25,825 nucleotides of DNA from a virus. Lineage: Duplodnaviria > Heunggongvirae > Uroviricota > Caudoviricetes. The stretch is from the IMG/VR virus record IMGVR_UViG_2537561935_000023, positions 1 through 25,825 of that record; one strand, written 5' to 3'. The notes beneath the pieces are model-generated. The model was given only the letters and a program-made list of their open reading frames with translations, was not told the origin of the DNA and did no database searches. Numbering within the stretch: the first letter of the stretch is position 1; each line of letters starts with the position of its first letter. Shown one piece after another: positions 9,188 to 9,985 of the stretch. A program made the position numbers and the translations under genes.

Positions 9188-9216
9188 GCCCTATAGTGCT
9201 CGTGATACTATAGGGC
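9188..9216. repeat. Perfect 10-bp inverted repeat with 9-bp spacer (GCCCTATAGT-gctcgtgat-ACTATAGGGC)
   Basis: Seen directly in sequence, in the divergent intergenic region between the 449-aa gene and the recombinase gene. Confidence 0.5.
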
Positions 9217-9319
9217 ATCTGACCACACTGTTAACTGGAGTAACGACTATGGCAGGAATACAGCATAACCAAACTCACCCCAAACTTACATAGCGCTTTC
9301 TGGCCGTGAGCATAACAAG

Positions 9320-9343
9320 GTCCACTCCTCGCTCATAAGGGAC
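9320..9343. repeat. Palindromic repeat, X-type copy (GTCCACTCCTCGCTCATAAGGGAC), degenerate
   Basis: 18 of 24 identical to X-type copy 7337-7360; same GTCC...GGAC termini; 3 bp upstream of the hairpin overlapping the recombinase start. Confidence 0.5.
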
Positions 9344-9346
9344 AAC

Positions 9347-9385
9347 CATACTCAAATCTCCCACATTGCAGGAGATTTGAGTATG
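9347..9385 (+). promoter_or_regulatory. Perfect 15-bp inverted repeat with 9-nt spacer that includes the recombinase SD (GGAG) and ATG; candidate translational occluding hairpin or lox-like recombinase site
   Basis: CATACTCAAATCTCC-cacattgca-GGAGATTTGAGTATG; right arm contains GGAG (9371-9374) and the ATG (9383-9385). Confidence 0.55.
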
Positions 9386-9985
9386 AACACGTCACCGTGG
9401 AACAAAGACCGTATCATAGGCCAAAAAAGACCACTTCAGATATCTCATATCTGGGGTATCCGAATCCGACTTGAACTGGAAGGTAAAACTCGCGATTTAG
9501 CTCTGTTCAACATGGCCCTGGATAGTAAGCTTCGAGGCTGTGATCTGGTCAAACTCAAAGTATCTGATGTTGCATATGGTGGCTCTGTTTCAAGCAGAGC
9601 AACGGTGTTGCAACAGAAAACCGGTAGCCCTGTTCAATTTGAGATAACCAAAGGGACAAGAGAAGCTGTTGCTGCATTGATACAGCTTAGCAATTTGCAC
9701 AGTAAAGACTTCTTGTTTCGGTCTAGGGTCGGAACTAACCAGCACATTTCAACCCGGCAATACAACCGAATCTTTCATGGGGGGGTAGAAAAGCTTGGTC
9801 TCGAAGATTCGCTTTACAGCACACATTCCATGAGAAGAACAAAACCTTACCTGATCTACAAGAAAACCAAGAATCTCCGGGTGATCCAACTTCTGTTGGG
9901 TCATAAGAAACTGGAAAGCACAGTCCGTTATCTGGGCATTGAAGTCGATGATGCGTTAGAGATTTCTGAATCGATTGAAGTCTAA
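9383..9985 (+). CDS. Small tyrosine recombinase (about 200 aa), FimB/FimE-sized catalytic-domain-only integrase/invertase family
   Basis: ATG at 9383 with GGAG 8 nt upstream (ORF-track start at 9377 is TTG); motifs ...LRGCDLVKLKVSDV (box I Arg), HSMRRT (HxxR), LLGHKKLESTVRYL (catalytic Tyr), collinear with FimB/FimE as recalled. Confidence 0.8.
   Translation: MNTSPWNKDRIIGQKRPLQISHIWGIRIRLELEGKTRDLALFNMALDSKLRGCDLVKLKVSDVAYGGSVSSRATVLQQKTGSPVQFEITKGTREAVAALIQLSNLHSKDFLFRSRVGTNQHISTRQYNRIFHGGVEKLGLEDSLYSTHSMRRTKPYLIYKKTKNLRVIQLLLGHKKLESTVRYLGIEVDDALEISESIEV

Follow-up and report, generated by a model that had tools for sequence, protein, structure and literature searches.

A perfect inverted repeat over the start codon of a small tyrosine recombinase gene is probably a translation-limiting leader hairpin beside an array of exchangeable cassettes

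Why do the ribosome-binding site and start codon of a recombinase gene lie wholly inside one arm of a perfect inverted repeat? The question is raised by the Caudoviricetes record IMGVR_UViG_2537561935_000023, which was analyzed over positions 1 to 25,825 (this whole 25,825-bp stretch is hereafter called the window). A perfect 15-bp inverted repeat with a 9-nt loop occupies positions 9347-9385 on the plus strand and comprises a left arm (CATACTCAAATCTCC, 9347-9361), a spacer (CACATTGCA, 9362-9370), and a right arm (GGAGATTTGAGTATG, 9371-9385). The right arm holds both the GGAG of the Shine-Dalgarno (SD) sequence (9371-9374) and the ATG (9383-9385) of an open reading frame (ORF) encoding a 200-amino-acid (aa) tyrosine recombinase (9383-9985, plus strand). 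An earlier, sequence-only reading of the window had described this arrangement, and the repeat, the GGAG, and the ATG were all found at the coordinates that it gave, the start codon being also the one annotated in RefSeq. That reading left two options, namely, an mRNA hairpin that keeps translation of the recombinase off or a lox-like recombination site. We consider it likely that the repeat is a leader hairpin throttling recombinase translation and that the gene is the resident recombinase of a cassette array swapped at 24-bp sites; all functional claims made here are drawn from sequence comparison.

The whole window contains no more than three short-spacer inverted repeats that are perfect over 10 nt or more. 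According to our own arithmetic, about 2e-4 perfect 15-bp hairpins and about 0.25 perfect 10-bp hairpins would be expected by chance over this length, so the 15-bp repeat is far beyond chance and a 10-bp repeat (described below) only mildly so. Folded as RNA, the 39-nt hairpin reaches -21 kcal/mol (z = -8.1 relative to dinucleotide shuffles), and once the left arm is left out, the initiation region (9362-9420) shows unusually little structure (-5.6 kcal/mol, z = +1.4). Transcripts that include the left arm would thus be predicted to fold into the 15-bp stem and bury both the SD and the AUG; initiation would then be rare, and the recombinase would be kept very scarce. Both arms are invariant across all aligned Escherichia coli contexts, and the only change in the loop is a C to T in one locus (L006). 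An intrinsic terminator was also considered as the role of the repeat and was rejected, since neither this inverted repeat nor the second one is followed by a T-run. A 74-bp remnant identical to window positions 9329-9402, which comprises half of an R-type recombination site, the hairpin in full, and the 20 nt that open the coding sequence, is found alone, with no gene annotated, in more than 500 Klebsiella pneumoniae plasmids, many of them large (and at L006:6001-6074).

If the repeat acts through RNA, is its pairing retained among relatives of the recombinase? We compared the leaders of 85 loci anchored on the start codon and folded 73 distinct leaders, from relatives whose recombinases are 59 to 98% identical, with a partition function. 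Almost all relatives carry an anti-SD stretch, followed by a loop and then by an SD (GGAG...) located 5 to 8 nt before the ATG, yet the arm sequences vary, as do the lengths of the arms (5 to 16 nt) and of the loop (4 to 13 nt). Clade-specific arms such as ATCTCC/GGAGAT, GTCCTCC/GGAGGAC, CTTGTCCTCC/GGAGGACAAG, ACACTTCTCCCG/CGGGAGAAGTGT, and TTGAACTCC/GGAGTTCAA all cover the SD, with conservation of the arms strongest at CTCC...GGAG. Pairing of the SD with an upstream partner had a median probability of 0.997; values above 0.8 were reached by 73% of the 73 leaders compared to 18% of 251 other gene starts taken as controls from these loci (p = 5e-18). Pairing of the AUG, too, was more frequent than in the controls (p = 2e-6), typically with a conserved CAT. 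In a 19-sequence alignment, 83.8% of cells were paired versus 31 to 44% with slid partners, 7 of the 15 pairs had changed on both sides, and none of 500 shuffles reached the observed score. The leaders therefore display features of SD-sequestering leaders, that is, an SD (with or without the start codon) in the 3′ arm of a stable leader stem and compensatory changes that keep the pairing. A search of Rfam returned no meaningful match. Of the two options raised at the outset, the mRNA hairpin is the one favored by this comparative evidence, which points to a covarying structure across the family with the SD constantly occluded and the AUG often so. We infer that the hairpin forms in RNA and blocks initiation.

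Three observations on the leaders speak against this interpretation. First, the wobble-strand test revealed no sense-strand bias (G.U versus A.C, 15 versus 21 and 12 versus 16), so covariation alone does not separate an RNA helix from a DNA palindrome; the case for RNA is made by the constant link to the SD and AUG together with a geometry too variable for a core site or for a palindrome bound by protein. Second, one betaproteobacterial subgroup has no anti-SD stem and carries another small hairpin, GATGG-GAGA-CCATC. Third, the 5′-terminal part of the left arm carries a conserved CATNCT that is a possible -10 box. Transcripts of the gene's own promoter would in that case start inside the arm and escape the hairpin, which would then work as in IS10 rather than as a constant throttle. 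Such an IS10-type fold-back, a variant of the leader hairpin to which we assign a minor though real share of the likelihood, would combine a weak own promoter, with its -10 box (CATACT) in the left arm, and the silencing of upstream read-through transcripts only; RNA starting past the left arm is indeed unstructured. Most relatives have CATACT, CATAAT, CATCCT, CATGCT, or CATCTT at a spacing from the ATG that hardly varies, and positions 2 and 6 are A and T in every case. However, no acceptable -35 box lies 16 to 18 bp upstream of CATACT, and a sigma-70 promoter scan inside the recombinase module predicted no promoter on the plus strand. Pairing with the AUG, as seen in many predicted folds, accounts equally well for the conserved CAT.

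Whether constant or conditional, what kind of enzyme would the leader hairpin hold in check? The only Pfam matches of the ORF product are to the catalytic domain of Phage_integrase (PF00589, 63.9 bits versus a cut-off of 27.1, residues 35 to 184), which places it in the tyrosine recombinase superfamily. The residues R51, K79, H148, R151, H174, and Y183 are invariant in 35 relatives sharing 59 to 98% identity, and an N-terminal PWNK motif is kept as well. A profile search against the PDB returned only Xer-family structures (XerD at 2.5e-7, XerC-like, XerH, and XerA), all over their catalytic domains; the profile covers only residues 130 to 278 of XerD, and about 34 residues precede the catalytic domain of the recombinase. 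These matches came from the profile search alone, as phmmer against the PDB gave none. The recombinase nevertheless scores far below the cut-off of every curated family in NCBIfam, including XerC (44.7 bits versus 335) and XerD (27.6 versus 330), of which it is thus not an equivalog, and the integron integrase models TIGR02249 and PRK15417 (17.2 and 17.6 bits versus 265 and 435). The sequence-only reading had called the protein FimB/E-sized and proposed an invertase or a cassette recombinase. The size is right, and the protein resembles FimB and FimE in having about 200 residues and essentially a catalytic domain only, but it is no FimB or FimE by family models (PRK09871 and PRK09870, 27.5 and 19.2 bits versus cut-offs of 222 and 221). 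Unlike the case of these invertases, no invertible promoter segment and no inverted variant were seen among the E. coli contexts sampled; by appearance, the enzyme is a cassette recombinase. The family comprises 526 clusters at 50% identity (E <= 1e-30) and ranges across Gamma- and Betaproteobacteria, plasmids included. A structure prediction from a shallow alignment reached a mean predicted local distance difference test score of 48; this model was set aside.

The genomic setting of the gene was then considered. The window is 100% identical to the chromosomes of many E. coli strains, in which it lies in a Qin-like lambdoid prophage adjoining ydfJ, between the replication-region DUF977 gene and hokD/rem. 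Among 5,426 complete E. coli genomes, 932 (about one in six) carry the recombinase; 181 of these share the prophage context of the window. Outside the shared context, homology to the window begins at about 9316-9332 and stops at about 10018-10034; alignments place the borders of the recombinase unit about 17 bp upstream of the left arm and about 45 bp past the stop codon. The flanks of the unit are wholly different between contexts, which include an integrative and conjugative element at tRNA-Thr, a dynamin/patatin island, the ypjA region, and an NDM plasmid. The cassettes upstream of the recombinase vary, and their genes can be on either strand. When joined flanks were used to look for empty sites, no simple one turned up for the 700-bp gene unit; single-flank records were returned instead, and these led to the recombinant junctions described below.

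What lies at these borders? The likely recombination sites are 24-bp palindromes of the form GTCCGCT-N2-N6-N2-AGCGGAC, with GTCCGCT arms and a central 6 bp of two types, TCGCTC (R-type) and GTGCCA (L-type, or TGGCAC in the R sense). Read in one sense, the two cores differ at two of six positions; L-sites are therefore relatives of R-sites in inverted orientation, which gives each cassette 24-bp terminal inverted repeats. Terminal inverted repeats of a mini-transposon were entertained and dropped in favor of cassettes and sites once the full palindromes and the R and L types were seen. In the window, the recombinase gene adjoins an array of mobile single-gene cassettes, with four units in all, and the cassettes recur elsewhere with breaks at the sites. 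The first cassette runs from an L-type site (GTCCGCT-TT-GTGCCA-AG-AGCGGAC, 6163-6186) to an R-type site (GTCCGTT-CC-TCGCTC-TC-AGCGGAC, 7337-7360), near which the homology of other genomes stops (at 7372), and contains a 314-aa gene on the minus strand (6224-7168) that some RefSeq records name a GIY-YIG nuclease family protein. An 18-bp linker (CTTCAGCTCAGTGATATC, 7361-7378), the usual joint between cassettes, leads to the next L-type site (GTCCGCT-CT-GTGCAA-AG-AGCGGAC, 7379-7402). This site is the left end of a cassette carrying the 449-aa anti-phage defense gene PD-T7-1 on the minus strand (7716-9065; PADLOC PDLC04073, E = 7e-157). The R-type site A that follows (GTCCACT-CC-TCGCTC-AT-AAGGGAC, 9320-9343) stops 3 bp short of the hairpin and 39 nt short of the ATG. 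Past the recombinase gene, the L-type site B (AGCAGCC-CT-GTGCCA-TA-AGCGGAA, 10004-10027) starts 18 bp after the stop codon and forms the left end of a cassette with a 326-aa gene on the plus strand (10345-11325). The right end of this cassette is the R-type site C (TTCCGTT-TC-TCGCTC-AA-AGCGGAC, 11550-11573), a direct repeat of site A. At both A and B, the half-site facing the recombinase is degenerate.

The same organization is found beyond the window. The motif occurs in inverted orientation on both sides of the recombinase gene in 80 loci from other genera, although sites outside the enterobacteria were examined only roughly. In 24 enterobacterial-type loci, 102 sites were counted versus 2.2 in shuffled sequence, nearly all of them having one polarity relative to the recombinase gene. 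In the window and at least 15 loci, the order is L, cargo, R, a linker of 15 to 18 bp (often CTTCRGYT...), then L, cargo, and R again. The recombinase gene takes the place of a linker, always lying between an R-site that ends 39 nt before the ATG and an L-site about 18 nt after the stop codon, and the half-sites facing it are degenerate (NNGGGAC and AGCAGCC). In each of the 18 enterobacterial loci where the unit is intact, this gene and its flanking sites show a single polarity. The 81-bp junction formed by an R-site, 18 bp, and an L-site is present in 695 of the 5,426 E. coli genomes (about one in eight) and is never annotated. The cassettes mapped hold one or two genes in either orientation and measure 0.64 to 3.4 kb. 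Two further L-to-R intervals, of 3.8 and 8.0 kb, exceed this range and do not represent simple cassettes; one has an IS66-type transposase insert, and the other spans the recombinase gene. Defense or candidate-defense cargo includes PD-T7-1, HEC-08, PDC-S32, Lit, HerA, dGTPase, and a helicase, and further cargo resembles NUDIX, GNAT, MFS, and oxidoreductase genes according to our own reading of the translations, for which no family search was made.

Natural recombinants were found at these sites. In E. coli FWSEC0008 (locus L088), the PD-T7-1 cassette is present and window segment 9337-11566, comprising the recombinase and the 326-aa gene, is absent. This segment is flanked in the window by GGTCCACTCCTCGCTCA|TAAGGGAC at site A and CTTCCGTTTCTCGCTCA|AAGCGGAC at site C, and FWSEC0008 holds the exact hybrid GGTCCACTCCTCGCTCA|AAGCGGAC. 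The same strain also lacks window segment 6191-7378 with the 314-aa gene, with an overlap at two like sites. Conversely, in E. coli ECO21 (L089), the 326-aa cassette stands by itself (window 10012-11573), the recombinase being absent; the breaks lie at GTGCCA and after TCGCTCA. The PD-T7-1 cassette is found alone elsewhere as exactly window 7379-9343. In a survey of breakpoints with window 7000-9700, the junction alone matched 7337-7413, and the other matches stopped at 7372 or started at 9321-9329. All natural breakpoints seen lie at 9316-9332, at 10012-10034, or at the other 24-bp sites, and within the sites they fall in the 6-bp cores.

Is the recombinase responsible for these exchanges? 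It is co-occurrence, site architecture, and junctions that point to this enzyme as the one that would cut the 24-bp sites. The breakpoints sit in the longest block identical between sites (about 8 bp) and could in principle come from short-homology recombination, which would also hit this block. The cassette pattern would then result from host homologous or microhomology recombination between dispersed repeats of 24 to 66 bp, with the recombinase as a passenger or in some other role. We regard this as rather improbable. The sites are built like the cores of tyrosine recombinases, with inverted arms of 7 to 9 bp around an asymmetric 6-bp center, and they come in two core types with a fixed polarity relative to the gene, which they always flank directly. 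Furthermore, all six catalytic residues are kept despite the divergence of the family, and conservation of the site arms goes hand in hand with that of the protein from Enterobacterales to Pseudomonas and Betaproteobacteria.

How would the leader hairpin serve such an array? Under the interpretation that we favor, the recombinase would be the resident enzyme of the cassette array, located between sites 9320-9343 and 10004-10027. As neighboring cassettes would be swapped at both sites, the sequence upstream of the gene, including the coding strand and transcription of the adjoining cargo, would differ between genomes. The hairpin, lying 3 bp inside the recombination site, would stay with the gene and could insulate its translation from read-through out of whichever cassette happens to be upstream. 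Directly after the stop codon, a second GC-rich hairpin without a T-run is predicted on the plus strand (CAGGGCTGC-AACA-GCAGCCCTG, 9992-10013; -22.2 kcal/mol, z = -3.8), the 3′ arm of which overlaps the left arm of the downstream L-site (10004-10027) in E. coli. A GC-rich hairpin at this place, clade specific in sequence and likewise without a T-run, is found in nearly all members of the family (loci L008 to L087), with a z score below -2 in 79% of 78 distinct flanks and a median energy of -22.5 kcal/mol over the first 55 nt after the stop codon. This suggests that the recombinase gene is buffered at both ends.

With the sites in view, the possibility that the repeat acts as DNA can be weighed. 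A palindromic operator, bound by a dimeric protein (the recombinase or a host factor) to repress transcription, would fit the wobble test without RNA-strand bias and the fact that CTCC...GGAG is the best-conserved part of the arms. We find it quite unlikely. The role of GGAG as a ribosome-binding site, together with its spacing, already accounts for its conservation; the spacing of 4 to 13 nt and arms of 5 to 16 nt among close relatives would not be tolerated by a dimeric site; and the conserved recognition arm of the recombinase, GTCCGCT, is unlike the hairpin arms. The last point, conservation of GTCCGCT but not of the hairpin arms, also argues against the hairpin as the recombinase's own site.

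The lox-like alternative of the sequence-only reading would make the 15-9-15 repeat a core site at which strands are exchanged within the recombinase's own translation initiation region. Inverted arms and a short spacer beside a tyrosine recombinase gene are what suggested it, and in a metagenome-assembled genome of Leclercia sp. (L016:5955-6009), the same 15-bp arms enclose a 9-bp spacer that is the exact reverse complement of that in the window (TGCAATGTG versus CACATTGCA). This flip looks like a template-switch flip of a palindrome loop, and an inversion of a 9-bp loop is expected from template switching at a palindrome rather than from recombinase synapsis. In the same locus, the recombinase ORF is broken off after 77 codons, and sites further downstream have the opposite polarity. 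The arms are not conserved in relatives whose recombinase is 60 to 90% identical, and the spacer, 9 bp here and 4 to 13 bp in relatives, departs from the fixed 6 to 8 bp used by known enzymes of the tyrosine recombinase class; in short, neither hairpin arms nor spacer length are conserved while the recombinase and the 24-bp sites are. Across 40 spread-sampled E. coli records and the aligned contexts, homology breaks at 9316-9332, and remnants retain both hairpin arms; no breakpoint fell in the spacer (9362-9370), either in the survey with window 7000-9700 or in all aligned contexts. We therefore hold this alternative to be very improbable. The same slight weight is given to an attC-like site recognized by its shape in folded single-stranded DNA, as with integron integrases. 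Such a site would fit a structure that is conserved without sequence conservation beside a recombinase in a cassette array. Against it, an SD and a start codon are the only constant sequence features, each recombinase gene has one hairpin while cassette borders have none, and these borders carry 24-bp double-strand-type palindromes to which the natural junctions map.

How does this system compare to those already known? The IS200 element, of about 700 bp, has hairpins at both ends of its gene; the stem-loop in the tnpA leader masks the SD, and impinging transcription is kept out by a terminator (PMC4513863). The present leader would resemble IS200 and IS10 in that an inverted repeat in the 5′ leader of a gene for a recombination enzyme pairs an anti-SD with the SD, presumably giving low translation and shielding from outside transcription. 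It differs from them in that the enzyme is a tyrosine recombinase rather than a transposase and that no antisense RNA or T-run terminator is evident. As in integrons, a tyrosine recombinase gene lies beside mostly single-gene cassettes that are bounded by sites, rich in anti-phage genes, and recurrent in unrelated contexts. Integron attC sites are long imperfect palindromes recombined as folded single strands, and integron cassettes share one orientation and a common promoter. Here, by contrast, the 200-aa protein has no N-terminal DNA-binding domain and falls far below the cut-offs of the integrase models, the sites are 24-bp duplex-type palindromes with two core types rather than folded hairpins, and the cassettes lie on both sides of the recombinase gene in either orientation, that of PD-T7-1 having its own predicted promoter. 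The array is also reminiscent of Acinetobacter pdif modules, which hold one or a few genes, have short sites in alternating inverted orientation, and can move between replicons; the recombinase is moreover Xer-like by profile. However, pdif sites are 28 bp long (11-6-11) and use the host XerC and XerD, whereas the sites here are organized as 7-2-6-2-7, have other sequences, are paired as R, 18 bp, and L, and come with a dedicated single small recombinase.

The array can also be likened to engineered heterospecific lox/FRT exchange, in that a cassette is flanked by two inverted sites with shared arms and a differing central 6 bp, although the arrangement here is natural. Shared arms with differing cores would allow a like-with-like double exchange and disfavor inversion or excision of a single cassette; the incompatibility of the R and L cores is deduced from the known rules of spacer homology in this enzyme class. 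The array thus resembles integrons, pdif modules, and engineered heterospecific exchange but has the defining features of none. No published description of the sites or of the cassette system was found in our literature collection, which is incomplete. At slightly less than even odds, the array is an undescribed platform in which a catalytic-domain-only, Xer-like recombinase uses two kinds of sites to exchange accessory cassettes, many of them anti-phage, like with like, with the hairpin as an insulator. If so, exchange would extend among prophages, conjugative elements, islands, and plasmids across Proteobacteria; the platform would be to nature what cassette exchange is to engineering and would join integrons as a second such system, and the hairpin would be a built-in insulator against a changing upstream cassette. 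Taken alone, the hairpin would be a further case of a known trick, whereby recombination enzymes limit their own translation and become immune to outside transcription. Of greater weight is its context, which offers a concrete and testable mechanism for the hopping of single anti-phage genes such as PD-T7-1, Lit, dGTPase, HerA, and HEC-08 between prophage hotspots, conjugative elements, and plasmids. Should the enzyme work as proposed, the sites would be a simple marker for new defense genes, and a very small recombinase with two naturally orthogonal sites could be useful for engineering.

What of the other repeat upstream of the gene? The sequence-only reading had linked to the recombinase a second perfect inverted repeat, 10 bp with a 9-bp spacer, which is present as described (GCCCTATAGT at 9188-9197 and ACTATAGGGC at 9207-9216). 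It does not belong to the recombinase unit, since the borders of the latter lie from about 9316-9332 onward; it travels with the PD-T7-1 cassette, of which it is part, and is present in FWSEC0008, where there is no recombinase. The -10 box (TATAGT) within its right arm is part of a predicted minus-strand promoter, TTAACA-16-TATAGT (9234..9207), which is directed toward PD-T7-1 and is the best predicted promoter of the region (10/12). The repeat is therefore probably a control element of PD-T7-1, or a product of chance, and may be the operator of this defense gene.

Some observations concern the cargo and its surroundings. The 314-aa protein has a weak match to PDC-S14 in PADLOC (E = 0.0075). 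The 326-aa protein matched nothing in Pfam, NCBIfam, PADLOC, or PHROGs, but its cassette in ECO21 (L089:6312-7292) adjoins a type II restriction-modification pair in another E. coli prophage, making this gene a candidate new defense gene. In the prophage of E. coli RM9513 (L005:3282-8957), the hotspot from DUF977 to hokD holds dGTPase, PDC-S32-like, MBL-fold hydrolase, and DUF4145 cassettes with the same sites, as well as a 115-bp remnant of the recombinase 5′ end with GTG as the start codon. In the window, a hokD-type toxin ORF (11997-12209) lies just downstream of the array, followed by four prophage tRNA genes (15421-15730) that ARAGORN reads as Met(CAT), Lys, Thr, and Gly; the RefSeq annotation has Ile, Thr, and Gly. 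Finally, in Pseudomonas-type loci, other conserved strings (..ATTCTGTTGAAAAAG, ..CAGGCTGTGTAAAAAC) recur in fusion with a site arm and its core (GTCCGCTTCTGGCCG), as at L040:8047, 9682, and 9693; L049:2171; L055:2247; L036:8308 and 10734; and L063:6819, which is suggestive of another family of dispersed repeats based on this half-site.

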